A stretch of 64,000 nt of DNA. Source: Escherichia coli (GTDB lineage: Bacteria > Pseudomonadota > Gammaproteobacteria > Enterobacterales > Enterobacteriaceae). The stretch lies in assembly GCF_030384885.1 (NCBI RefSeq), contig NZ_CP128613.1. One strand, 5' to 3'. The notes under the pieces were generated by a model. That model was not told the origin of the DNA and ran no database searches. It worked only from the letters and a program-made list of their open reading frames with translations. Below, one piece after another: positions 3,711 to 58,610 of the stretch. A program made the position numbers and the translations under genes. Within the stretch, counting starts at the first letter, position 1. Every line of letters starts with the position of its first letter.

Positions 3711-3744
3711 TTGTATTGCTCAATGTAATATTGGCCCATGATCG

Positions 3745-3890
3745 GTAGGCCGGATAAGGCGCTCGCGCCGCATCCGGCTACGGTGCCGACTGCCTGATGC
3801 GACGCTCGCGCGTCTTATCAGGCCTACAAATTCTCGCACCATCCGGCAACGGTGCCTAATGCGACGCTTACCGAGTCTTATCAGCCCCCG
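3745..3890. repeat. REP/BIME cluster (three REP units)
   Basis: Repeated gccggataaggcgctcgcgccgcatccggc and ctgatgcgacgctcgcgcgtcttatcaggcctac palindromic units between yjdM and yjdN. Confidence 0.85.
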
Positions 3891-5338: not shown

Positions 5339-6355
5339 ATGAACGCTAAGATAATTGCCTCGCTGGCCTTCACCAGCATGTTCAGCCTCAGCACCCTGTT
5401 AAGCCCGGCGCACGCCGAAGAGCAGGAAAAGGCGCTGAATTTCGGCATTATTTCAACGGAATCACAGCAAAACCTGAAACCGCAATGGACGCCGTTCTTA
5501 CAGGATATGGAGAAGAAGCTGGGCGTAAAGGTCAACGCCTTCTTTGCCCCGGACTACGCGGGCATTATCCAGGGGATGCGCTTCAATAAAGTGGATATCG
5601 CCTGGTACGGCAACCTGTCGGCAATGGAAGCAGTGGATCGCGCCAACGGTCAGGTCTTCGCCCAGACGGTCGCGGCGGATGGATCGCCGGGTTACTGGAG
5701 CGTGTTGATCGTCAACAAAGACAGTCCGATCAACAACCTGAACGATCTGCTGGCGAAGCGTAAAGATCTCACCTTTGGCAATGGCGATCCTAACTCCACC
5801 TCTGGCTTCCTCGTCCCCGGCTACTACGTCTTCGCCAAAAACAATATCTCCGCCAGCGACTTCAAGCGCACCGTCAACGCCGGGCATGAAACCAACGCGC
5901 TGGCCGTCGCCAACAAGCAGGTGGATGTGGCGACCAACAACACCGAGAACCTCGACAAGCTGAAAACCTCCGCACCGGAGAAGCTCAAAGAACTGAAGGT
6001 GATCTGGAAATCGCCGCTGATCCCAGGCGATCCGATCGTCTGGCGCAAAAATCTTTCCGAAACCACCAAAGACAAGATCTACGACTTCTTTATGAACTAC
6101 GGCAAAACGCCGGAAGAGAAAGCGGTGCTGGAGCGCCTGGGCTGGGCCCCGTTCCGCGCCTCCAGCGACCTGCAACTGGTGCCGATTCGCCAGCTCGCGC
6201 TGTTTAAAGAGATGCAGGGCGTGAAAGGCAATAAAGGGCTGAATGAGCAGGACAAGCTGGCAAAAACCAGCGCCATTCAGGCGCAACTGGATGACCTGGA
6301 CCGCCTGAACAACGCGTTAAGCGCGATGAGTTCGGTGAGTAAAGCGGTGCAGTAA
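5339..6355 (+). CDS. phnD: Phosphonate ABC transporter periplasmic binding protein
   Basis: 338 aa with N-terminal signal peptide ending AHA-EE; operon position. Confidence 0.95.
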   Translation: MNAKIIASLAFTSMFSLSTLLSPAHAEEQEKALNFGIISTESQQNLKPQWTPFLQDMEKKLGVKVNAFFAPDYAGIIQGMRFNKVDIAWYGNLSAMEAVDRANGQVFAQTVAADGSPGYWSVLIVNKDSPINNLNDLLAKRKDLTFGNGDPNSTSGFLVPGYYVFAKNNISASDFKRTVNAGHETNALAVANKQVDVATNNTENLDKLKTSAPEKLKELKVIWKSPLIPGDPIVWRKNLSETTKDKIYDFFMNYGKTPEEKAVLERLGWAPFRASSDLQLVPIRQLALFKEMQGVKGNKGLNEQDKLAKTSAIQAQLDDLDRLNNALSAMSSVSKAVQ

Positions 6356-6367
6356 TGTGCTCGATCG

Positions 6368-6462
6368 GTCCCCTCTCCCTTGAGGGAGAGGGTTAGGGTG
6401 AGGGGGAAATGCGCACGCTGGTGCCCTCACCCCGGCCCTCTCCCACAGGGAGAGGGAGAAAA
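6368..6462. repeat. GC-rich imperfect-palindrome intergenic repeat (boxC-like), phnD-phnE spacer
   Basis: cccctctccc-ttg-agggagagggttagggtgaggg and ccctcaccccggccctctccc-acag-ggagagggagaaaa modules. Confidence 0.6.
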
Positions 6463-6480
6463 CATTAAACGGAGCCAAAC

Positions 6481-7260
6481 ATGCAAACCATCACCATTGC
6501 CCCACCCAAGCGCAGCTGGTTCTCGATCTTCAGCTGGGCCGTTGTTCTCGCTGTACTGGTCGTCTCGTGGCAGGGCGCGGAAATGGCCCCGCTCACGCTG
6601 ATCAAAGACGGCGGCAACATGGCAACATTCGCCGCCGACTTCTTCCCGCCCGATTTCAGCCAGTGGCAGGATTACCTCACCGAAATGGCCGTCACGCTGC
6701 AAATCGCCGTCTGGGGCACTGCGCTGGCAGTCGTTCTCTCCATCCCCTTCGGCCTGATGAGCGCCGAAAACCTGGTGCCGTGGTGGGTGTACCAGCCCGT
6801 GCGCCGTCTGATGGACGCCTGCCGCGCCATTAACGAAATGGTCTTCGCCATGCTGTTCGTGGTCGCCGTCGGTCTCGGGCCGTTCGCTGGCGTGCTGGCG
6901 CTGTTTATTCACACCACCGGCGTGCTTTCCAAACTGCTTTCCGAAGCGGTGGAAGCGATTGAACCCGGCCCGGTGGAAGGTATTCGCGCCACTGGTGCCA
7001 ACAAGCTCGAAGAGATCCTCTACGGCGTGCTGCCGCAGGTGATGCCGCTGCTGATCTCCTACTCCCTCTATCGCTTCGAATCCAACGTCCGTTCGGCCAC
7101 CGTTGTTGGCATGGTCGGCGCTGGCGGGATCGGCGTCACGCTGTGGGAAGCGATTCGCGGTTTCCAGTTCCAGCAAACCTGCGCCCTGATGGTGCTGATT
7201 ATCGTCACGGTCAGCCTGCTGGATTTCCTCTCTCAACGGTTGCGTAAGCACTTTATCTGA
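6481..7260 (+). CDS. phnE: Phosphonate ABC transporter permease (uninterrupted reading frame)
   Basis: 259-aa hydrophobic multi-TM ORF with no internal stop or frameshift. Confidence 0.9.
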
Positions 7261-7280
7261 TAAGCGAGGCATTGATATCT

Positions 7281-8006
7281 ATGCACTTGTCTACACATCC
7301 GACCAGCTACCCAACACGCTATCAGGAGATAGCCGCAAAACTTGAGCAGGAGCTTCGTCAACACTACCGCTGCGGCGACTATCTTCCCGCCGAGCAGCAA
7401 CTGGCAGCGCGCTTTGAGGTGAATCGCCACACCCTGCGCCGTGCCATCGACCAACTGGTGGAAAAAGGCTGGGTACAGCGCCGTCAGGGCATCGGCGTAC
7501 TGGTGCTGATGCGCCCGTTCGATTACCCGCTCAACGCCCAGGCGCGTTTTAGCCAGAACCTGCTGGACCAGGGCAGCCATCCCACCAGCGAAAAACTGCT
7601 GTCGGTGCTGCGCCCCGCGTCCGGCCACGTCGCTGACGCGCTGGGGATCGCCGAGGGCGAGAACGTTATCCACCTGCGCACCCTGCGCCGGGTCAACGGC
7701 GTCGCGCTCTGTTTAATCGACCACTACTTTGCGGACCTCACCCTCTGGCCGACGCTGCAACGTTTCGACAGCGGCTCGCTGCACGATTTTCTGCGTGAGC
7801 AAACGGGGATTGCGCTGCGCCGCAGCCAGACGCGGATCAGCGCCCGCCGCGCCCAGGCCAAAGAGTGCCAGCGTCTTGAAATTCCGAATATGTCGCCGCT
7901 GCTGTGCGTGCGCACCCTTAACCACCGTGACGGTGAAAGCAGCCCGGCGGAGTACTCCGTCAGCCTGACGCGCGCCGACATGATTGAATTCACCATGGAG
8001 CACTGA
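7281..8006 (+). CDS. phnF: GntR-family transcriptional regulator of phosphonate operon
   Basis: 241 aa from ATG 7281; N-terminal GntR-type HTH region. Confidence 0.9.
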   Translation: MHLSTHPTSYPTRYQEIAAKLEQELRQHYRCGDYLPAEQQLAARFEVNRHTLRRAIDQLVEKGWVQRRQGIGVLVLMRPFDYPLNAQARFSQNLLDQGSHPTSEKLLSVLRPASGHVADALGIAEGENVIHLRTLRRVNGVALCLIDHYFADLTLWPTLQRFDSGSLHDFLREQTGIALRRSQTRISARRAQAKECQRLEIPNMSPLLCVRTLNHRDGESSPAEYSVSLTRADMIEFTMEH

Positions 8007-8459
8007 ATGCACGCAGATACCGCGACCCGCCAGCACTGGATGTCCGTGCTGGCGCACAGCCAACCGGCTGAACTGGCAGCCCGCCTGAAGGCGCTGAACA
8101 TCACCGCCGACTATGAGGTGATCCGCGCCGCTGAAACCGGCCTGGTACAGATTCAGGCGCGAATGGGTGGCACCGGCGAACGCTTTTTTGCCGGCGATGC
8201 CACGCTCACCCGCGCCGCCGTACGCCTGACTGACGGCACGCTCGGCTACAGCTGGGTGCTGGGGCGCGACAAACAGCACGCCGAACGCTGCGCGCTGATT
8301 GACGCGCTGATGCAGCAATCTCGCCACTTTCAAAACTTATCAGAAACCCTTATTGCCCCGCTGGACGCTGACCGTATGGCACGCATTGCCGCACGCCAGG
8401 CCGAAGTGAACGCCAGTCGGGTCGACTTCTTTACGATGGTTCGCGGAGACAACGCATGA
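8007..8459 (+). CDS. phnG: C-P lyase core complex subunit PhnG
   Basis: 150-aa ORF in conserved operon order. Confidence 0.9.
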
Positions 8460-9040
8460 CCCTGGAAACCGCTTTTATGCTTCCCGTGCAGGATGCCCAG
8501 CACAGTTTTCGTCGCCTGTTAAAGGCCATGAGCGAGCCGGGCGTGATTGTCGCCCTGCATCAGCTCAAACGCGGCTGGCAGCCGCTGAATATCGCCACCA
8601 CCAGCGTGCTGCTCACGCTGGCCGATAACGACACGCCGGTGTGGCTTTCCGCGCCATTAAGTAACGATATCGTCAGCCAGAGCCTGCGTTTTCATACCAA
8701 CGCCCCGCTGGTCAATCAGCCGGAACAGGCGACCTTCGCAGTGACGGATGAGGCGATTACCAGCGAGCAGCTCAACGCCCTTTCCACCGGCACCGCCGTT
8801 GCGCCGGAAGCCGGTGCGACGTTGATTTTACAGGTCACCAGCCTGAGCGGCGGACGCATGCTGCGCCTCACCGGCGCGGGTATTGCCGAAGAACGGATGA
8901 TCGCCCCGCAACTGCCGGAGTGCATTCTGCACGAACTCACCGAGCGCCCGCACCCGTTCCCGCTCGGCATCGACCTGATCCTGACCTGCGGCGAGCGCCT
9001 GCTGGCTATTCCGCGAACCACTCTTGTGGAGGTGTGCTGA
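8456..9040 (+). CDS. phnH: C-P lyase core complex subunit PhnH
   Basis: 194-aa ORF; start overlaps phnG stop (translational coupling). Confidence 0.9.
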
Positions 9041-10104
9041 TGTACGTTGCCGTGAAAGGGGGCGAGAAGGCGATCGACGCCGCCCACGCCCTGCAAGAGA
9101 GCCGACGCCGGGGCGATACCGATTTGCCTGAACTGAGCGTCGCCCAGATTGAACAGCAGCTTAATCTCGCGGTGGATCGCGTGATGACCGAAGGCGGCAT
9201 TGCCGACCGCGAACTGGCCGCACTGGCGCTGAAACAGGCCAGTGGCGATAACGTTGAAGCAATTTTCCTGCTGCGCGCCTACCGCACGACGCTGGCAAAA
9301 CTGGCGGTAAGCGAGCCGCTCGACACCACCGAGATGCGTCTCGAACGCCGTATCTCCGCCGTTTATAAAGACATTCCTGGCGGCCAGTTGCTTGGCCCGA
9401 CCTACGACTACACCCATCGCCTGCTGGATTTCACCCTGCTGGCGAATGGCGAAGCGCCGACGCTGACCACCGCCGACAGCGAGCAAGCCCCATCGCCGCA
9501 CGTTTTCAGCCTGCTGGCGCGTCAGGGGCTGGCGAAGTTTGAAGAGGATAGCGGCACACAGCCGGATGACATCACCCGCACGCCGCCGGTTTACCCCTGC
9601 TCACGCTCCTCCCGCCTGCAGCAGCTCATGCGCGGAGACGAAGGCTATTTGCTGGCGCTGGCCTACTCCACCCAGCGTGGTTACGGACGCAATCACCCGT
9701 TCGCAGGCGAAATCCGCAGTGGCTATATCGACGTCTCTATTGTGCCGGAAGAGCTGGGATTTGCGGTGAACATCGGCGAACTGCTGATGACCGAGTGTGA
9801 AATGGTCAACGGTTTTATCGACCCGCCGGATGAGCCGCCGCACTTCACGCGCGGCTACGGGCTGGTGTTCGGCATGAGCGAGCGCAAAGCGATGGCAATG
9901 GCGCTGGTTGACCGCGCTCTACAAGCCCCGGAGTACGGCGAGCACGCGACAGGCCCGGCGCAGGATGAAGAGTTCGTGCTGGCGCATGCCGACAACGTCG
10001 AAGCCGCAGGCTTTGTCTCGCACCTCAAACTCCCGCACTACGTCGATTTCCAGGCCGAGCTGGAGCTACTCAAACGTCTGCAACAGGAGCAGAACCATGG
10101 CTAA
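9040..10104 (+). CDS. phnI: C-P lyase subunit PhnI
   Basis: 354 aa from ATG 9040 overlapping the phnH stop (ATGA... overlap); ORF-track version is N-terminally extended. Confidence 0.9.
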   Translation: MYVAVKGGEKAIDAAHALQESRRRGDTDLPELSVAQIEQQLNLAVDRVMTEGGIADRELAALALKQASGDNVEAIFLLRAYRTTLAKLAVSEPLDTTEMRLERRISAVYKDIPGGQLLGPTYDYTHRLLDFTLLANGEAPTLTTADSEQAPSPHVFSLLARQGLAKFEEDSGTQPDDITRTPPVYPCSRSSRLQQLMRGDEGYLLALAYSTQRGYGRNHPFAGEIRSGYIDVSIVPEELGFAVNIGELLMTECEMVNGFIDPPDEPPHFTRGYGLVFGMSERKAMAMALVDRALQAPEYGEHATGPAQDEEFVLAHADNVEAAGFVSHLKLPHYVDFQAELELLKRLQQEQNHG

Positions 10105-10942
10105 TCTGAGCGGCTACAACTTTGCCTACCTCGACGAGCAGACCAAACGCATGATCCGCCGCGCCATCTTAAAAGCGGTGGCGATCCCCGGCTATCAGGT
10201 GCCGTTTGGCGGGCGCGAGATGCCGATGCCGTACGGCTGGGGAACCGGCGGCATACAGCTTACTGCCAGCGTGATTGGTGAAAGCGACGTGTTGAAGGTG
10301 ATTGACCAGGGCGCGGATGACACCACCAACGCGGTGTCGATTCGCAACTTCTTTAAGCGCGTGACCGGGGTAAACACCACTGAACGTACGGATGATGCGA
10401 CGCTTATCCAGACGCGCCACCGCATCCCCGAAACGCCACTGACCGAAGATCAGATCATTATCTTCCAGGTGCCGATCCCGGAACCGCTGCGCTTTATCGA
10501 GCCGCGCGAAACGGAGACCCGCACCATGCACGCGCTGGAGGAGTACGGCGTGATGCAGGTGAAGCTGTATGAAGATATCGCCCGCTTCGGTCATATCGCC
10601 ACCACCTACGCCTATCCGGTGAAGGTGAACGGGCGCTACGTCATGGACCCATCGCCGATCCCGAAATTCGATAACCCGAAAATGGACATGATGCCCGCCC
10701 TGCAGCTGTTCGGCGCAGGGCGCGAGAAGCGCATCTATGCGGTGCCGCCGTTTACCCGCGTGGAAAGTCTCGATTTCGACGATCACCCGTTCACCGTTCA
10801 GCAGTGGAATGAGCCATGCGCCATCTGCGGATCGACCCACAGCTATCTCGACGAAGTGGTGCTGGATGACGCCGGAAACCGCATGTTTGTCTGCTCCGAT
10901 ACCGATTATTGCCGCCAACAGAGCGAGGCGAAAAGCCAATGA
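10097..10942 (+). CDS. phnJ: C-P lyase catalytic subunit PhnJ
   Basis: 281 aa from ATG 10097; C-terminal Cys cluster CAICGS...CSDTDYC. Confidence 0.9.
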   Translation: MANLSGYNFAYLDEQTKRMIRRAILKAVAIPGYQVPFGGREMPMPYGWGTGGIQLTASVIGESDVLKVIDQGADDTTNAVSIRNFFKRVTGVNTTERTDDATLIQTRHRIPETPLTEDQIIIFQVPIPEPLRFIEPRETETRTMHALEEYGVMQVKLYEDIARFGHIATTYAYPVKVNGRYVMDPSPIPKFDNPKMDMMPALQLFGAGREKRIYAVPPFTRVESLDFDDHPFTVQQWNEPCAICGSTHSYLDEVVLDDAGNRMFVCSDTDYCRQQSEAKSQ

Positions 10943-11697
10943 ATCAACCGTTACTTTCGGTCAATAACCTGACCCACCTCTACGCACCGGGCAAAGGCTT
11001 CAGCGACGTTTCTTTTGATTTATGGCCGGGGGAAGTGCTGGGCATCGTCGGGGAATCCGGCTCCGGGAAGACCACGCTGCTGAAATCAATCTCCGCGCGC
11101 CTGACGCCGCAGCAGGGGGAGATTCACTATGAAAACCGTTCCCTCTATGGCATGAGCGAGGCCGACCGCCGTCGCCTGCTGCGCACCGAATGGGGCGTGG
11201 TGCATCAGCATCCGCTCGACGGCCTGCGCCGTCAGGTGTCAGCAGGCGGCAATATCGGCGAACGGCTGATGGCGACCGGGGCGCGTCATTACGGCGATAT
11301 TCGCGCCACCGCGCAGAAGTGGCTGGAAGAGGTGGAGATTCCCGCCAACCGTATCGACGATCTGCCGACCACTTTTTCCGGCGGCATGCAGCAGCGTTTG
11401 CAGATTGCCCGCAACCTGGTGACGCATCCGAAGCTGGTGTTTATGGACGAGCCAACCGGCGGGCTGGATGTGTCAGTGCAGGCACGCCTGCTCGACCTGC
11501 TGCGCGGTCTGGTGGTGGAGCTGAACCTGGCGGTGGTGATTGTCACCCATGATTTGGGCGTCGCCCGCCTGCTGGCGGACCGTTTGCTGGTGATGAAACA
11601 GGGTCAGGTGGTGGAGAGTGGGTTAACCGACCGCGTACTCGACGACCCACATCATCCGTATACCCAGTTGCTGGTGTCATCGGTTTTGCAGAATTGA
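10939..11697 (+). CDS. phnK: C-P lyase-associated ABC-type ATPase PhnK
   Basis: 252 aa; Walker A GESGSGKTT; start overlaps phnJ stop. Confidence 0.9.
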   Translation: MNQPLLSVNNLTHLYAPGKGFSDVSFDLWPGEVLGIVGESGSGKTTLLKSISARLTPQQGEIHYENRSLYGMSEADRRRLLRTEWGVVHQHPLDGLRRQVSAGGNIGERLMATGARHYGDIRATAQKWLEEVEIPANRIDDLPTTFSGGMQQRLQIARNLVTHPKLVFMDEPTGGLDVSVQARLLDLLRGLVVELNLAVVIVTHDLGVARLLADRLLVMKQGQVVESGLTDRVLDDPHHPYTQLLVSSVLQN

Positions 11698-11720
11698 GTT
11701 GCAACACTTTGCGCACTGAT

Positions 11721-11830
11721 CCCCTCACCCCGGCCCTCTCCCGGAGGGAGAGGGAGAAAACCGGCGCAATATTCAACACCGTGCACAAGCGGTCCCCTCG
11801 CCCCTTTGGGGAGAGGGTTAGGGTGAGGGG
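11721..11830. repeat. Second copy of the boxC-like repeat, phnK-phnL spacer
   Basis: Same two modules as at 6368-6462 but in swapped order. Confidence 0.6.
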
Positions 11831-11874
11831 CAATGTGCGCACCGCTCCCAAACATGCGAACCACGAGGCGAAAA

Positions 11875-12555
11875 ATGATTAACGTACAAAACATCAGTAA
11901 AACCTTCATCCTGCACCAACAAAACGGCGTGCGTCTGCCTGTATTACAACGCGCCTCGCTCACCGTCAACGCAGGCGAATGCGTGGTGCTCCACGGTCAC
12001 TCCGGCAGCGGCAAATCAACTCTGCTACGCTCGCTGTACGCCAACTATCTGCCCGACGAAGGGCAAATCCAGATCAAACACGGTGACGAATGGGTAGACC
12101 TGGTCACCGCGCCAACGCGCAAAGTGGTGGAAATCCGCAAAACCACTGTCGGCTGGGTAAGCCAGTTTCTGCGCGTCATCCCGCGTATTTCGGCACTGGA
12201 AGTGGTGATGCAGCCGCTGCTCGATACCGGCGTTCCGCGTGAAGCCTGCGCCGCTAAAGCCGCCCGATTACTGACGCGCCTGAACGTGCCTGAACGCCTG
12301 TGGCACCTGGCACCATCGACCTTCTCCGGCGGCGAACAGCAGCGCGTCAACATCGCCCGTGGCTTTATCGTCGACTATCCGATTCTGCTGCTGGATGAAC
12401 CCACCGCCTCGCTGGACGCTAAAAACAGCGCCGCCGTAGTGGAACTGATCCGCGAAGCCAAAGCCCGTGGCGCAGCCATCGTCGGCATCTTCCATGACGA
12501 AGCCGTACGCAATGACGTCGCCGACCGCCTGCACCCAATGGGAGCCTCTGCATGA
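11875..12555 (+). CDS. phnL: C-P lyase-associated ABC-type ATPase PhnL
   Basis: 226 aa from ATG 11875; Walker [10 protein letters not shown], signature FSGGEQQR. Confidence 0.9.
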
Positions 12556-14667: not shown

Positions 14668-15426
14668 ATGAGCCTGACCCTCACACTTACTGGCACTGGC
14701 GGCGCACAGGGTGTTCCCGCATGGGGCTGTGAGTGCGCGGCCTGCGCCAGAGCGCGGCGCTCACCGCAGTATCGCCGCCAGCCATGCAGCGGCGTCGTGA
14801 AGTTTAACGACGCGATCACCCTGATCGACGCCGGGCTGCACGATCTCGCCGATCGCTGGTCGCCCGGATCGTTCCAGCAGTTTTTGCTGACGCACTACCA
14901 TATGGATCACGTGCAGGGGCTGTTTCCGCTGCGCTGGGGCGTGGGCGATTCGATCCCGGTCTACGGCCCGCCGGATGAACAGGGCTGCGACGATCTGTTT
15001 AAACATCCGGGCCTGCTTGATTTCAGCCACACGGTGGAGCCATTTGTGATGTTTGATTTGCAGGGATTACAGGTCACGCCGCTGCCGCTCAACCATTCGA
15101 AACTCACTTTCGGCTATCTACTGGAAACGGCACATAGCCGGGTGGCGTGGCTGTCTGACACCGCAGGCCTGCCGGAAAAAACGGTGAAATTTTTACGCAA
15201 TAATCAGCCACAGGTAATGGTGATTGATTGCAGCCACCCACCGCGCGCGAATTCGCCACGCAATCACTGTGATTTAAACACCGTGCTGGCGCTGAATGAA
15301 GTTATCCGCTCGCCGCGCGTGGTTCTGACACATATCAGCCATCAGCTTGATGTGTGGCTGATGGAGAACGTACTGCCGTCAGGGTTTGAGGCGGGGTTTG
15401 ATGGGATGGAGATTGGGGTGGAGTGA
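14668..15426 (+). CDS. phnP: Phosphodiesterase PhnP (metallo-beta-lactamase fold)
   Basis: 252 aa; HxHxDH motif [10 protein letters not shown]. Confidence 0.9.
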
Positions 15427-15460
15427 TGGGTGAGGGGCGATGCCTGCTCTAAACTCAACA

Positions 15461-23659: not shown

Positions 23660-25807
23660 ATGAAAAAAGTCGTCACGGTTTGCCCCTATTGCGCATCAGG
23701 TTGCAAAATCAACCTGGTCGTCGATAACGGCAAAATCGTCCGGGCGGAGGCAGCGCAGGGGAAAACCAACCAGGGTACCCTGTGTCTGAAGGGGTATTAT
23801 GGCTGGGACTTCATTAACGATACCCAGATCCTGACCCCGCGCCTGAAAACCCCCATGATCCGTCGCCAGCGTGGCGGCAAACTCGAACCTGTTTCCTGGG
23901 ATGAGGCACTGAATTACGTTGCCGAGCGCCTGAGCGCCATCAAAGAGAAGTACGGTCCGGATGCCATCCAGACGACCGGCTCCTCGCGTGGTACGGGTAA
24001 CGAAACCAACTATGTAATGCAAAAATTTGCGCGCGCCGTTATTGGTACCAATAACGTTGACTGCTGCGCTCGCGTCTGACACGGCCCATCGGTTGCAGGT
24101 CTGCACCAATCGGTCGGTAATGGCGCAATGAGCAATGCTATTAACGAAATTGATAATACCGATTTAGTGTTCGTTTTCGGGTACAACCCGGCGGATTCCC
24201 ACCCTATCGTGGCGAATCACGTAATTAACGCTAAACGTAACGGGGCGAAAATTATCGTCTGCGATCCGCGCAAAATTGAAACTGCGCGCATTGCTGACAT
24301 GCACATTGCACTGAAAAACGGCTCGAACATCGCGCTGTTGAATGCAATGGGCCATGTCATTATTGAAGAAAATCTGTACGACAAAGCGTTCGTCGCTTCC
24401 CGTACAGAAGGCTTTGAAGAGTATCGTAAAATCGTTGAAGGCTACACGCCGGAGTCGGTTGAAGATATCACCGGCGTCAGCGCCAGTGAGATTCGTCAGG
24501 CGGCGCGGATGTATGCCCAGGCGAAAAGCGCCGCCATCCTGTGGGGCATGGGTGTAACCCAGTTCTACCAGGGCGTGGAAACCGTGCGTTCTCTGACCAG
24601 CCTCGCGATGCTGACCGGTAACCTCGGTAAGCCGCATGCGGGTGTAAACCCGGTTCGTGGTCAGAACAACGTGCAGGGTGCCTGCGATATGGGCGCGCTG
24701 CCGGATACGTATCCGGGATACCAGTATGTGAAAGATCCGGCTAACCGCGAGAAATTCGCCAAAGCCTGGGGCGTGGAAAGCCTGCCTGCTCATACCGGTT
24801 ATCGCATCAGCGAGCTGCCGCACCGCGCAGCGCATGGTGAAGTGCGTGCCGCGTACATTATGGGCGAAGATCCGCTACAAACTGACGCGGAGCTGTCGGC
24901 AGTACGTAAAGCCTTTGAAGATCTGGAACTGGTCATCGTCCAGGACATCTTTATGACTAAAACCGCATCAGCGGCGGACGTTATTTTACCGTCCACCTCG
25001 TGGGGCGAGCATGAAGGCGTGTTTACTGCGGCTGACCGTGGCTTCCAGCGTTTCTTCAAGGCGGTTGAACCGAAATGGGATCTGAAAACGGACTGGCAGA
25101 TTATCAGTGAAATCGCCACCCGTATGGGTTATCCGATGCACTACAACAACACCCAGGAGATCTGGGACGAGTTGCGTCATCTGTGCCCGGATTTCTACGG
25201 TGCGACTTACGAGAAAATGGGCGAACTGGGCTTCATTCAGTGGCCTTGTCGCGATACTTCAGATGCCGATCAGGGGACTTCTTATCTGTTTAAAGAGAAG
25301 TTTGATACTCCGAACGGTCTGGCGCAGTTCTTCACCTGCGACTGGGTAGCGCCAATCGACAAACTCACCGACGAGTATCCGATGGTACTGTCAACGGTGC
25401 GTGAAGTCGGTCACTACTCTTGCCGTTCGATGACCGGTAACTGTGCGGCACTGGCGGCGCTGGCTGATGAACCTGGCTACGCACAAATCAATACCGAAGA
25501 CGCCAAACGTCTGGGTATTGAAGATGAGGCATTGGTTTGGGTGCACTCGCGTAAAGGCAAAATTATCACCCGTGCGCAGGTCAGCGATCGTCCGAACAAA
25601 GGGGCGATTTACATGACCTACCAGTGGTGGATTGGTGCCTGTAACGAGCTGGTTACCGAAAACTTAAGCCCGATTACGAAAACGCCGGAATACAAATACT
25701 GCGCCGTGCGCGTCGAGCCGATCGCCGATCAGCGCGCCGCCGAGCAGTACGTGATTGACGAGTACAACAAGTTGAAAACTCGCCTGCGCGAAGCGGCATT
25801 GGCGTAA
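23660..25807 (+). CDS. fdhF: Formate dehydrogenase H, selenocysteine-containing (in-frame UGA at 24077-24079)
   Basis: ORF-track ORFs 23660-24079 and 24128-25807 are in the same frame, separated only by TGA; N-terminal Cys cluster CPYCASGC; total 715 codons. Confidence 0.95.
24080..24122 (+). promoter_or_regulatory. SECIS element (selenocysteine insertion stem-loop) of fdhF
   Basis: Stem-loop-forming sequence cacggcccatcggttgcaggtctgcaccaatcggtcgg immediately 3' of the in-frame TGA. Confidence 0.85.
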
Positions 25808-26590: not shown

Positions 26591-26665
26591 TGTAGGCCTG
26601 ATAAGACGCGGCAAGCGTCGCATCAGGCATCCACACATTGCCGGGTGTATGTCCCCGGCAATCCT
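26591..26665. repeat. REP (repetitive extragenic palindromic) element
   Basis: gtaggcctgataagacgcg...cgtcgcatcaggc plus gccgggtgtatgtccccggc palindromes between yjcO and gltP. Confidence 0.8.
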
Positions 26666-54608: not shown

Positions 54609-54689
54609 GCGATGGTTCTCCAGGTTTACGGGCAGGTGGTTAAACCACAATAAACCGGAAGAAGGCGAAGATCGAGTGGATGTTCAAAG

Positions 54690-55694
54690 TCAGTCGGGAA
54701 GTTGATGAAGAATTTGCCCCAGTCGCTCTTGCAGCGAACCCGAAACCGAAAGATAAGGAATGTTCCTGCGCGATAATTCCTGTTCGTACCACGCCTGCTG
54801 CCGCGCGCGAAACGCCTCTCCTTGCCGGGTGCCATCCTGCACAAAGGGAAATTCCGCGCCGCAAAGCACCACCAGAGAGTATTCCCGCTCCGCCAGCTGG
54901 TGAAGTTCCTTCGGGGCATGACCATATTGATCAAGGGTATAGAACAAGGTCGTGAGTGGCGATGTGTCACATATAAGATAGCGATTAGCTTCTGCTTGTT
55001 GTTCCCGACGTACCTGTTCGCGGGCGATATGCAACAAATCGTCTGCGGTTAAAACACCATTTTTCTCTTCCCAATAGTCGCGACCAAATTCAGCGACATA
55101 CGCCGTGTCGAGCACGTCCGCCAGCGCTTTTGAAAGTGTGCTCTTACCGGTTGATTCGCCACCAAGCAGACAGATACGGCGAACGAAACTGCGATAAACG
55201 TCGTGCGCCAGCATGTAACGATAGCGGTGAACGTCGGAACGAATCAGCGTTCCCGAAGGAGATTTATCGCCAAGTGGACGCTGTAATCGAATGTGTTCAA
55301 CAGGTTGGGCAAAACGCTTTGTCAGCACTTTAGCAAAACCGTCACCATAATCTTCTGCGGTAAATACAGCGTGTGGGCGGCAATGTAATACCTGCAGGCA
55401 CAGCGTCGCCACATAATGACGATGGATGTCGGCATCGGCATCATTATGCGGTATGGCAGGTAAGTTATAACGCGCGATCAGTTCGGGAGTCAGTACCAGA
55501 ACCGTCGCTCGCGGGAAGCTCACTTGCAGCCACGTCAGGCGCTTTTCAGGTTCACAGTCAGGCATTTCCGGCACGGAATAACTGATGATGAACAGTTCTT
55601 CACATTGTGCCAGCGCGGTATTGATCAACCGTTCATGACCACAATGCAAAGGCGCGAATTTGCCAACCACCAGTCCCGTTACGAAAGGCTTCAT
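54690..55694 (-). CDS. NadR-like bifunctional NMN adenylyltransferase / ribosylnicotinamide kinase lacking the N-terminal HTH domain
   Basis: About 334 aa from ATG 55692-55694; nucleotidyltransferase motif GKFAPLHCGH; Walker A GGESTGKST followed by EFGRDYW, resembling the E. coli NadR catalytic domains as I recall them. Confidence 0.7.
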   Translation of the reverse strand: MKPFVTGLVVGKFAPLHCGHERLINTALAQCEELFIISYSVPEMPDCEPEKRLTWLQVSFPRATVLVLTPELIARYNLPAIPHNDADADIHRHYVATLCLQVLHCRPHAVFTAEDYGDGFAKVLTKRFAQPVEHIRLQRPLGDKSPSGTLIRSDVHRYRYMLAHDVYRSFVRRICLLGGESTGKSTLSKALADVLDTAYVAEFGRDYWEEKNGVLTADDLLHIAREQVRREQQAEANRYLICDTSPLTTLFYTLDQYGHAPKELHQLAEREYSLVVLCGAEFPFVQDGTRQGEAFRARQQAWYEQELSRRNIPYLSVSGSLQERLGQILHQLPD

Positions 55695-56248
55695 GATGCC
55701 CGCAGCTCCTTGCGCCACTGATACAAACCATGCCAGGCGTTAATCCAGAACAGGAAATATAAACCGGCGGTCAAGTTTAAACCACGCGTCATATACAGTG
55801 GCACCGCCAGGGTATTCACTGCTAACCAGACGTACCAGTTTTCGATACGTCTTCCCATCAACATGAATTGTGCCAGAACGCTGAAGGTCAAAATCAACGA
55901 ATCCAGCCAGGGGGCCCAGGCATTGGTAAAGGTGTGGAGCAAAAAGCCGTAGCCACCTGCCACGACGACGGCACAGAGCAACAAGAGGAAAAAGTGACTG
56001 GCTTGCGTCCGGCGCACCGGCAAGACATCGCCACCCTGACCTTTCAGCCAGTGGATCCAACCGATGATGCTGGTTGCGATGAAGAATAACTGGAGCGTGA
56101 CATCGGCATAGAGTTGCACGGACCAAAAAACCCAGCCATACAGCATGCTACCAATTATGCCGATCCACCACGTATGCACATTGTTTCTGGCGGCCAGCCA
56201 GACGGAAACCGCGTATGCCAGACACGCGGCGATTTCTGAATAAGACAT
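55691..56248 (-). CDS. PnuC-family nucleoside (nicotinamide riboside-type) transporter
   Basis: 185-aa polytopic ORF with PnuC-like motifs QLYADVTLQLFF and ENWYVWL; GGGAGGG RBS; stop overlaps the start of the NadR-like gene. Confidence 0.7.
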   Translation of the reverse strand: MSYSEIAACLAYAVSVWLAARNNVHTWWIGIIGSMLYGWVFWSVQLYADVTLQLFFIATSIIGWIHWLKGQGGDVLPVRRTQASHFFLLLLCAVVVAGGYGFLLHTFTNAWAPWLDSLILTFSVLAQFMLMGRRIENWYVWLAVNTLAVPLYMTRGLNLTAGLYFLFWINAWHGLYQWRKELRAS

Positions 56249-57350: not shown

Positions 57351-57476
57351 TTGTGTTCCTTTTTTTCAGGTTCTGCCCACCCGTGCAAAACCTCGCTAAA
57401 CAGATAGGACCGGAGTATGCTATTCCACATCCAGGGATGGGTTTATAAACGGCAAGATGATATCGGATTTTCAGCC

Positions 57477-58037
57477 ATGACAAAGATAAAATTTGTTTTC
57501 TTTTTTCTGCTAATCGCAGGTATAACGCCTGCCGCGACGGGGGCTTGCCCGGCGCAGACACCTGACGGTGTCGCAGATAAGTTTTACTCAACCTATGTTT
57601 TTTCTGATACCAGCTTTAAGAGTGAAAAAGACCAGCTGGCATTTTTTCAGAAATACCTCACCCCCTCGCTTTATCAACTGATTGTTGGCGCGTATGACAG
57701 AAATAAACGCGACTACGCCATCGATCCCACGGCCAAACCTACTTTTGGTGACGGGATTATTTTCACGTCTTATCCTTCGGATAGTTACTATGAGAAATTT
57801 GATGGCGTGACACTACCGTCATCGTATAAACCTGGTGATAACAACGTCACTGTCGCCCTCCATTTTCATTTTACCGTTGATGATAAAAAGGCCTGGCAGG
57901 ACGAAGCGCTAATGGCGCGTTCCGCTGATGATGGCTGTTGGCGGATCGACAATATCATATTCCACGAAGACGAAGATAACTCGGTTCTGAGCCTTAAAGA
58001 GTGGCTAAAAAAAGGGATTGAAAGTCCGGCGGAATAA
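57477..58037 (+). CDS. Hypothetical secreted protein (signal peptide, two Cys); alternative start 57417
   Basis: 186 aa from ATG 57477 (MTKIKFVFFFLLIAGITPAATGA...); no family recognised. Confidence 0.55.
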   Translation: MTKIKFVFFFLLIAGITPAATGACPAQTPDGVADKFYSTYVFSDTSFKSEKDQLAFFQKYLTPSLYQLIVGAYDRNKRDYAIDPTAKPTFGDGIIFTSYPSDSYYEKFDGVTLPSSYKPGDNNVTVALHFHFTVDDKKAWQDEALMARSADDGCWRIDNIIFHEDEDNSVLSLKEWLKKGIESPAE

Positions 58038-58082
58038 AGCAGTTCAACGAACTCAGGAAAAGCATTTTACAAGGAGATAGTA

Positions 58083-58610
58083 ATGACCCCAGACCTGGAA
58101 CTACTCAAAAACAAACGTAATCAAATTAAAGAAATCATTGATGAGCTACAGCTTACATTAACCGACGATCCAAATTGGGATGCCCCTTCTGATAACAGTT
58201 ATTTAAATGAAGAAGAACTCGCCATCCCTGAAATTCAGGATAATGTGACGGCAATAAAGGCGACGAATAAATTAATCAGCTGGTTTGGGCAAGATCATGA
58301 AGGTTTTGTCGGCTTATGGCGAGGTCCCAATGCGATCCCCCTCGATAAAGCGCAAGTGGTTCGGCTGAATGATGAAGCTAACTATGAACTAGTCGCCGAT
58401 ACCGTGCCCAATTACCTGATGTTCACCTATTTTTATGGCGATGAAGATACTGAACAACATGAATACAATCGTGTTAAAAAATTACTGACTGATGCAGGAT
58501 TCACCGTTGCTGGCGACATAGAAGCTATCTATGACAATATTGATTACGATAGTCTTCAACCTGAAGATTATAAAGAAGAGCAATATAATCAGGCCCAATC
58601 CCGCCGATAA
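58083..58610 (+). CDS. Hypothetical acidic cytoplasmic protein
   Basis: 175-aa ORF with strong AAGGAG RBS 7 nt upstream; D/E-rich and AT-rich by eye; no family recognised. Confidence 0.6.
   Translation: MTPDLELLKNKRNQIKEIIDELQLTLTDDPNWDAPSDNSYLNEEELAIPEIQDNVTAIKATNKLISWFGQDHEGFVGLWRGPNAIPLDKAQVVRLNDEANYELVADTVPNYLMFTYFYGDEDTEQHEYNRVKKLLTDAGFTVAGDIEAIYDNIDYDSLQPEDYKEEQYNQAQSRR

Follow-up and report, generated by a model that had tools for sequence, protein, structure and literature searches.

Work on the BoxC or PIT element reportedly goes back to Bergler in 1992, to Bachellier in the 1990s and to Hoyne & Maher in 2000. The motif was first called BoxC, was rediscovered as the PIT element and was named TMECO; it is defined as 5'-CCCTCNCCC N3-6 GGGNGAGGG N3 GGGNGAGGG-3', and a second loop of TTA or CCG makes a unit type A or type B, respectively (Holder et al. 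2015, PMC4666352). Among the known stem-loop families of E. coli, another paper includes BoxC with a length of 56 (PMC2267715). E. coli K-12 carries 23 TMECO copies with five inverted pairs, each combining a type A with a type B unit, and the copy number ranges from 1 to 29 across E. coli strains and varies widely between strains and genera; that paper counts 62 pan-E. coli loci (PMC4666352). TMECO loci vary more between strains than control intergenic sites do, and "palindrome effect" deletions at these loci were described by Holder et al. (PMC4666352). The TMECO triplex forms in vitro as monitored by CD and NMR, and the type A mm class of Table 1 was measured by CD, NMR and melting, with a Tm of 74 C (PMC4666352). 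PIT elements block DNA polymerase in vitro and are without effect on RNA polymerase, promoter or terminator activity (PMC4666352). A literature search for phn-specific repeats or newer BoxC/PIT function yielded nothing beyond PMC4666352 and PMC2267715, and in the accessible part of the PMC4666352 supplement the one reference to phn concerns K-12 TMECO no. 22, which lies downstream of phnP.

We investigated a repeat in the phnK-phnL spacer within a window of 64,000 nt, which is the whole stretch of E. coli DNA analysed here and is 100% identical to E. coli 2013C-4282 (NZ_CP027579.1). The genes flanking the repeat loci (phnD/phnE and phnK/phnL) were assigned from NCBIfam equivalog models and from the genes that RefSeq annotates in that identical record, with phnK (10939-11697, + strand; TIGR02323 CP_lyasePhnK, E 1.7e-123) forming the upstream flank and phnL (11875-12555, + strand; TIGR02324) lying downstream. 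An ATG at 11833 was rejected as the phnL start in favour of the K-12-like MINVQN at 11875, because TIGR02324 aligns from residue 15 of the 11833 open reading frame and RefSeq also annotates the later start; the spacer therefore measures 177 nt (11698-11874, + strand) and lies within the phn polycistronic mRNA. Another, unrelated stretch of the window proved similarly uncommon, with only 17 genomes at least 99% identical to it, which indicates that the whole lineage is rare; the possibility that the phn operon of the source strain is a divergent imported island was rejected on this ground. The phnE gene (6481-7260) is annotated as intact here (259 aa), and K-12 phnE is flagged as a pseudogene (phnE1, b4583).

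A repeat search confirmed the claim of the sequence-only reading that the repeat at 11721-11830 shares two segments with a repeat at 6371-6456 in the phnD-phnE spacer. The shared segments were 51 nt at 88% identity (D5, 6413-6463 and 11711-11761) and 32 nt at 91% identity (D13, 6377-6408 and 11802-11833), and their unequal start-to-start distances (5298 and 5425 nt, respectively) indicate that the segment order is swapped between the two loci, about 5.3 kb apart. The phnK-phnL copy reads CCCCTCACCCCGGCCCTCTCCCGGAGGGAGAGGG, a 40-nt spacer (11755-11794), which matches the gap of about 40 bp that had been noted, and CCCTCGCCCCTTTGGGGAGAGGGTTAGGGTGAGGGG; the phnD-phnE spacer reads CCCTCTCCCTTGAGGGAGAGGGTTAGGGTGAGGG, 19 nt and CCCTCACCCCGGCCCTCTCCCACAGGGAGAGGG. 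Local alignment showed that each locus is self-complementary and that, a 3-nt loop excepted, "module A" read on the opposite strand gives the segment named "module B". The core GGGAGAGGGNNNGGGTGAGGG was found four times in the window against 0.04 expected, twice on each strand, so the phnD-phnE locus is convergent (+ then -) and the phnK-phnL locus divergent (- then +).

The published TMECO pattern, with 27 specified bases, gave four exact matches in the window (6371-6404 +, 6424-6456 -, 11722-11754 - and 11795-11829 +) against 0.00 expected from 100 shuffles, and loop 2 was TTA in both + strand units and CCG in both - strand units. The two "modules" are thus one 34-36-nt unit on opposite strands, namely TMECO types A and B; the shared segments stand, and their division into separate modules does not. 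The presence of one repeat family at two junctions of one operon was borne out by these matches, and the two loci are not unrelated sequences. With a probability of about 0.88, we identify 11721-11830 as a divergent inverted pair of the BoxC/PIT/TMECO family, a polymorphic passenger in an intercistronic gap. A search of the whole window against Rfam at gathering thresholds returned no match at either BoxC locus.

On the left of the divergent pair lies a type B 3' tail on the - strand (gatcagtgcgcaaagtg, 11705-11721), recognised by flank comparison of window and K-12 copies and belonging to the conserved ...GCGCA... BoxC flank. It is followed by the type B unit (11722-11754, - strand; loop 2 = CCG), an exact match to the published pattern that reads CCCTCTCCC-TCC-GGGAGAGGG-CCG-GGGTGAGGG. 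The 40-nt inner spacer comprises the 5' flanks of both units (AGAAAAC ... GTGCACAAGCGGT) and leads to the type A unit (CCCTCGCCCCTTTGGGGAGAGGGTTAGGGTGAGGGG; loop 2 = TTA) at 11795-11830 on the + strand, of which 11795-11829 matches the pattern exactly; a single mismatch in its stem makes it an "A mm" unit. A type A 3' tail (caatgtgcgcaccgc, 11831-11846, + strand), also assigned by flank comparison, follows on the right, and in the RNA fold this right-hand tail pairs with the type B tail. At the first locus, a type A unit (6371-6404, + strand) and a type B unit (6424-6456, - strand) form a convergent A/B pair. All four units are intergenic, lying between the phnD stop and the phnE start or between the phnK stop and the phnL start.

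Three of the four window units have cores identical to entries of K-12 Table 1 (PMC4666352). The 36 nt of 11795-11830 are identical to K-12 TMECO nos. 7, 11 and 15 ("A mm"), the class whose triplex was measured in vitro, and 6424-6456 is identical to nos. 1 and 4, and no. 2, which is 35 nt long, has the 34-nt core of 6371-6404 as its first 34 nt; the control oligonucleotide of that study is the 11795-11830 sequence with four G-to-C changes (PMC4666352). A comparison of 15 window and K-12 units over 25 nt of flanking sequence showed that type A units share a 5' GTGCNCNANCGGTC and type B units a 5' GTTTTCT flank and that both types carry 3' tails with GCGCA, which extends the conserved unit toward the ~56-bp BoxC. 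The pairing of A with B holds at both window loci and also at phnD-phnE in Leclercia and Kluyvera. Since K-12 itself has, by the Table 1 coordinates, one divergent pair (nos. 17+18) beside four convergent ones (PMC4666352), the "swapped order" is a known arrangement; the order is indeed swapped, which amounts to a convergent as against a divergent inverted pair. The window phnD-phnE composite aligns end to end with that at K-12 hrpB-mrcB and differs mainly in the central 19 nt. With a 251-nt query, the family was found in 5,425 of 5,426 complete E. coli genomes, at a median of 15 and a maximum of 29 places per genome, and only 47 of the 76,178 places were on plasmids, almost all being chromosomal.

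Compared with the described BoxC/PIT/TMECO copies, the phn copies have the same pattern, the same A and B loops, an intergenic site, inverted pairs of A with B in both arrangements, a copy number of tens per genome, strain-to-strain instability and "palindrome-effect" deletions. There is no difference in kind. K-12 lacks copies at phnD-phnE and phnK-phnL and carries classical REP pairs (BIMEs) at both. The repeat family and its pair arrangement were therefore already known.

REP/BIME elements are the second system for comparison. In most E. coli they sit in precisely these two intercistronic gaps, and they share with the BoxC pairs the inverted-pair arrangement, polymorphism and the folding of the mRNA into a long hairpin of high stability (-61 and -50.5 kcal/mol), whereas their sequence is unrelated, with the REP consensus GCCGGATGCGGCG...CTTATCCGGCCTAC absent from the window element. 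The REP consensus palindrome (GCCGGATGCGGCG...CGCCTTATCCGGCCTAC) was absent from 11698-11874 and 6356-6480 and is present there in K-12. No REP remnants were seen beside the BoxC alleles in the aligned allele sequences, and a likeness of the K-12 inter-REP motif (AAATGCGC..TCCCC) to the BoxC tail was too weak to interpret. REPs have a RAYT transposase partner, and we know of no transposase partner for BoxC. MITEs such as ERIC/IRU and NEMIS resemble the composite in size (~110 bp, below 300 bp), inverted ends, intergenic position, co-transcription, long RNA hairpin and occurrence of copies at unrelated loci; they differ in that, for BoxC, no target-site duplication was seen, the composite is not fixed and no transposase link is known. 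With H-DNA or mirror-repeat tracts, BoxC shares a purine-motif triplex with a G-rich third strand and genetic instability. The BoxC triplex is, however, intrastrand and built from three consecutive blocks on one strand, whereas H-DNA arises from a homopurine mirror repeat in duplex. Within the window, classical REP/BIME elements were found at 3738-3887, 26591-26629 and 37089-37170, linked by the long-range inverted matches I1, I2 and I15, and Rfam matches to the REP-derived naRNA4 lie at 3748-3824 (+) and 37099-37170 (-), none of them at the BoxC loci.

We examined the occupancy of the three phn gaps in E. coli. At phnK-phnL, the BoxC divergent pair was present in 545 of 5,426 complete genomes and a REP pair (BIME) in 4,841 (~89%), the two alleles together covering 5,386 genomes. 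Strains without this copy, for which a check had been proposed, are thus the large majority. The REP-bearing K-12 spacer is 110 nt long and contains two REPs. At phnD-phnE, the full BoxC convergent pair was present in 361 of the 5,426 genomes, and the sampled strains showed a REP pair and two collapsed forms as further alleles. The 61-nt allele equals the full pair minus 64 nt between two direct GGGAGAGGG copies, and the 67-nt allele has a 58-nt deletion between two AGGG repeats; both keep the CCCTCTCCC/GGGAGAGGG hairpin and fit the "palindrome effect" deletions of Holder et al. (PMC4666352). The third gap, phnP-yjdP, holds a 125-nt BoxC composite in K-12 (TMECO no. 22 with a truncated type B partner) and in about half of the E. 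coli genomes. The window has only the 13-nt tgGGTGAGGGGcg there, as do four of nine other E. coli strains read. Directly after the phnP stop at 15426, the 10-mer GGGTGAGGGG (15428-15437, + strand), expected 0.07 times per window, marks the remnant of the deleted composite. Ten strains read across the operon carried the three gaps in many allele combinations, the sites assorting independently of one another. The collapsed and remnant alleles point to slippage deletions.

The inner spacer had been described as unique, which did not hold. Local blastn aligned window 11731-11830, spacer included, to the inverted K-12 phnP-yjdP element over 102 nt with 87% identity, and a 50-nt spacer segment occurred one to three times per genome in 3,279 of the 5,426 E. 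coli genomes; the spacer is therefore the conserved middle of a composite. About 513 genomes had matches of at least 95% and about 2,461 had matches of 80-90%, which, from identity and counts, we took to be the phnK-phnL and the phnP-yjdP copies, respectively. By the same segment search, members of the spacer family occur in E. coli only within the phn region. The inverted paralogue of the phnK-phnL composite thus sits 3.7 kb away at phnP-yjdP in other strains, and a homologue of the spacer block is tandemly amplified in Pseudocitrobacter. Both the composite and the ~100-bp inverted paralogue were present in strains LH09-a, FORC_029 and WP8-S17 (loci L090, L095 and L096). In these strains, phnLMNOP is flanked by inverted repeats ~87% identical to each other, an arrangement that could permit inversion of the segment.

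Folding of the + strand of the phnK-phnL spacer predicted one long imperfect hairpin in the mRNA, formed by base pairing of the type A unit with the type B unit. The minimum free energy (MFE) of the window BoxC pair was -87.6 kcal/mol at phnK-phnL (z -6.7) and -73.1 kcal/mol at phnD-phnE (z -6.7), compared with -61 kcal/mol (z -6.7) and -50.5 kcal/mol (z -5.0) for the K-12 REP pairs at the same junctions and -24.3 kcal/mol (z -3.2) for the collapsed 61-nt phnD-phnE allele. Single units as RNA were not unusually stable (z -1.4 and -0.2). The sense and antisense folds were about equally strong (-87.6 vs -91.6 kcal/mol at phnK-phnL and -73.1 vs -69.7 kcal/mol at phnD-phnE), so that no strand asymmetry indicative of RNA-level selection was seen at either junction. 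Together, the weak single units and the equal folds reveal nothing specific to RNA-level selection. A scan of 6200-12100 found no + strand promoter or terminator-like sites at either element, with counts at shuffle level, and no T/U run follows the + strand stem, as it would in an intrinsic (Rho-independent) terminator. A spacer hairpin followed by GTTTTCT on the - strand (11781-11762) was flagged as terminator-like; this antisense match is probably without meaning, as the overall counts were at chance level.

The phnK-phnL element is thus a divergent pair whose minus-strand type B unit and plus-strand type A unit are joined through their own conserved 5' flanks, and the phnD-phnE copy represents the same family set as a convergent A/B pair. 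We conclude that the BoxC pair is inserted non-coding DNA in a short gap between cistrons, polymorphic and dispensable, and that it is transcribed through. At the DNA level, the single-stranded pair could extrude as a hairpin, a cruciform or a purine-motif triplex, and extrusion would promote replication slippage between short direct repeats, giving collapsed and expanded alleles; in vivo DMS footprinting found no triplex in cells, which counts against the DNA-structure step (PMC4666352). At the RNA level, the pair on the phn mRNA would form a very stable stem-loop lacking terminator features that is read through and that, by analogy with REP, may act at most as a barrier stabilising the upstream message. 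The earlier suggestion that the element "inserts modularly or recombines" was sustained as far as recombining units are concerned, given the 61- and 67-nt alleles, the 13-nt remnant and an amplification with a 61-nt period; modular insertion is presumed, neither a target-site duplication nor a transposase having been detected. Vertical descent alone does not account for the near-identical composites at unrelated loci, and neither does a mechanism that has been demonstrated.

To compare the junctions across genera, PhnK was used to scan one genome per species, which yielded 80 loci. Among 27 other Enterobacterales, 16 had a phnK-phnL spacer of 8-34 nt (Citrobacter sp. FP75 and Leclercia, for example, have 10 nt each), and some others had REP-like palindromes there. 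This nearly empty state suggests that an empty junction is probably ancestral and that the BoxC element was inserted. The phnD-phnE spacer was at least 62 nt long in all 10 other Enterobacterales with adjacent genes, and nine of the 10 spacers folded with z <= -2.8; its occupants were BoxC pairs in Leclercia and Kluyvera, REP-like elements in Citrobacter and a plain hairpin elsewhere. A structured palindromic occupant after the periplasmic binding-protein gene phnD resembles the situation in other ABC-transporter operons, where REP stem-loops follow malE and hisJ.

In Pseudocitrobacter faecalis DSM 27453 (QNRL01000011.1; locus L009), an orthologous phnK-phnL insertion with outer flanks as in the window was found, in which the inner hairpin-plus-spacer block is tandemly repeated with a period of 61 nt in 3.4 copies (L009 7796-7999), and the phnD-phnE gap of this strain contains two tandem convergent A/B pairs. 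Its phn operon is 90-94% identical to the window at the nucleotide level, compared with about 77-84% in other genera, and the genes flanking the operon are only about 75-78% identical. Judged from these identities, an Escherichia-type phn operon may have been shared horizontally between Escherichia and Pseudocitrobacter, as the contrast between operon and flanks suggests.

We weighed several other explanations against the passenger reading. The pair might be selected operon punctuation, with a stem-loop of any kind kept to shield upstream mRNA from 3'-5' decay and to set ratios such as PhnD > PhnE and PhnG-K > PhnL-P, in which case BoxC and BIME would be interchangeable. REP stem-loops after malE and hisJ are reported to stabilise upstream mRNA (Newbury 1987; Stern 1988), and a hairpin is retained in the alleles at both junctions (-87.6 to -24.3 kcal/mol, all z <= -3.2), including the CCCTCTCCC/GGGAGAGGG hairpin of the collapsed forms, and in the phnD-phnE spacers of the other genera it is formed from different repeat types. 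Palindromic repeats, however, yield hairpins whether selected or not, the sense and antisense folds are equally strong, no structure is required at phnK-phnL, as the nearly empty spacers of 16 of the 27 other Enterobacterales indicate, and in measurements PIT elements neither affected RNA polymerase nor acted as promoter or terminator (PMC4666352). Selection for a stem-loop is plausible at phnD-phnE, which is always structured, and the case for it is weak at phnK-phnL, which is often empty. Punctuation is compatible with the passenger reading, to which it adds selection, and overall we regard it as possible yet rather doubtful. We give little credence to an extended version in which BoxC and REP/BIME pairs are interchangeable selected phn stem-loops after phnD and phnK and the composite also spreads by local inverted copying. 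If that version were true, the allelic series (BoxC, REP, collapsed and empty) would reflect repeated replacement under selection instead of neutral turnover, and the copying would involve template switching or gene conversion between the phnK-phnL and phnP-yjdP gaps.

A ~110-bp composite with imperfect inverted ends of ~34 nt also invites comparison with a MITE-like non-autonomous element, whose units would serve as imperfect terminal inverted repeats and which would be moved by a transposase in trans, for example a RAYT/IS200-like enzyme recognising hairpins. The near-identical composites at window phnD-phnE and K-12 hrpB-mrcB, the inverted paralogue at phnP-yjdP, the occupation of the same phn junctions in Leclercia, Kluyvera and Pseudocitrobacter and the wide differences in copy number among strains and genera (PMC4666352) would all suit such mobility. 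Yet alignments read by eye showed no target-site duplication at phnD-phnE, phnK-phnL, hrpB-mrcB or phnP-yjdP, the spacer family is restricted to the phn region, and units also occur singly or convergently, so that the composite is not a fixed unit; moreover, few places are on plasmids (47 of 76,178), and no association with transposons, phages, plasmids, transposases or integrases was found (PMC4666352). We consider this explanation improbable. It is very improbable that the element acts as an internal phn transcription signal, that is, as a terminator or attenuator before phnL or as an internal promoter: a very stable G/C-rich stem does lie directly upstream of phnL and a terminator-like hairpin with GTTTTCT occurs in the spacer, but the latter is antisense, the + strand has no T/U run after the stem and no terminator or promoter match at either locus, the overall counts were at shuffle level, phnL-P are needed downstream in the same operon, and PIT elements lack promoter and terminator activity (PMC4666352). 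The chance that the two loci resemble each other through coincidence or low-complexity G/C-rich sequence is negligible; nothing other than the simple G/C-rich composition speaks for it, and the four exact pattern matches, the 88-91% identity over 32-51 nt and the occurrence of the family in thousands of genomes speak against it. The terminator, promoter and chance-similarity readings are effectively excluded, and we retain the passenger reading.

The identification of the element as a divergent BoxC pair adds little in itself, as the family has been in the literature since the 1990s, was characterised in 2015 and is represented here by a textbook copy. What is new is small: two junctions of a single operon carry either a BoxC or a REP pair as alternative alleles, the phnK-phnL composite has an inverted paralogue downstream of phnP, and amplified versions occur in the Escherichia-like phn operon of Pseudocitrobacter. 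The modest value lies in a natural allelic series within one well-understood operon, with a BoxC pair, a REP pair or a collapsed hairpin in E. coli strains and an empty gap in related genera, which could be used to test the effect of BoxC on expression or mRNA stability and the rates of deletion and expansion.

Several further features were observed in the window. A perfect 27-nt inverted repeat with a 4-nt loop (40782-40839) lies between the convergent genes yjcF and yjcE and is probably a bidirectional terminator. Two genomic intervals may be accessory insertions relative to K-12: 54688-56246 (L097 34688-36246), where tyrB and alr are separated by pnuC and a gene for an AAA-family ATPase, and 57475-58608 (L097 37475-38608), which carries two hypothetical genes between alr and dnaB. 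Rfam also detected the Hfq-binding sRNA sraL (44423-44563, 153 bits) and a SECIS element inside fdhF (24072-24126, 88 bits), both of which are expected in this region of E. coli.
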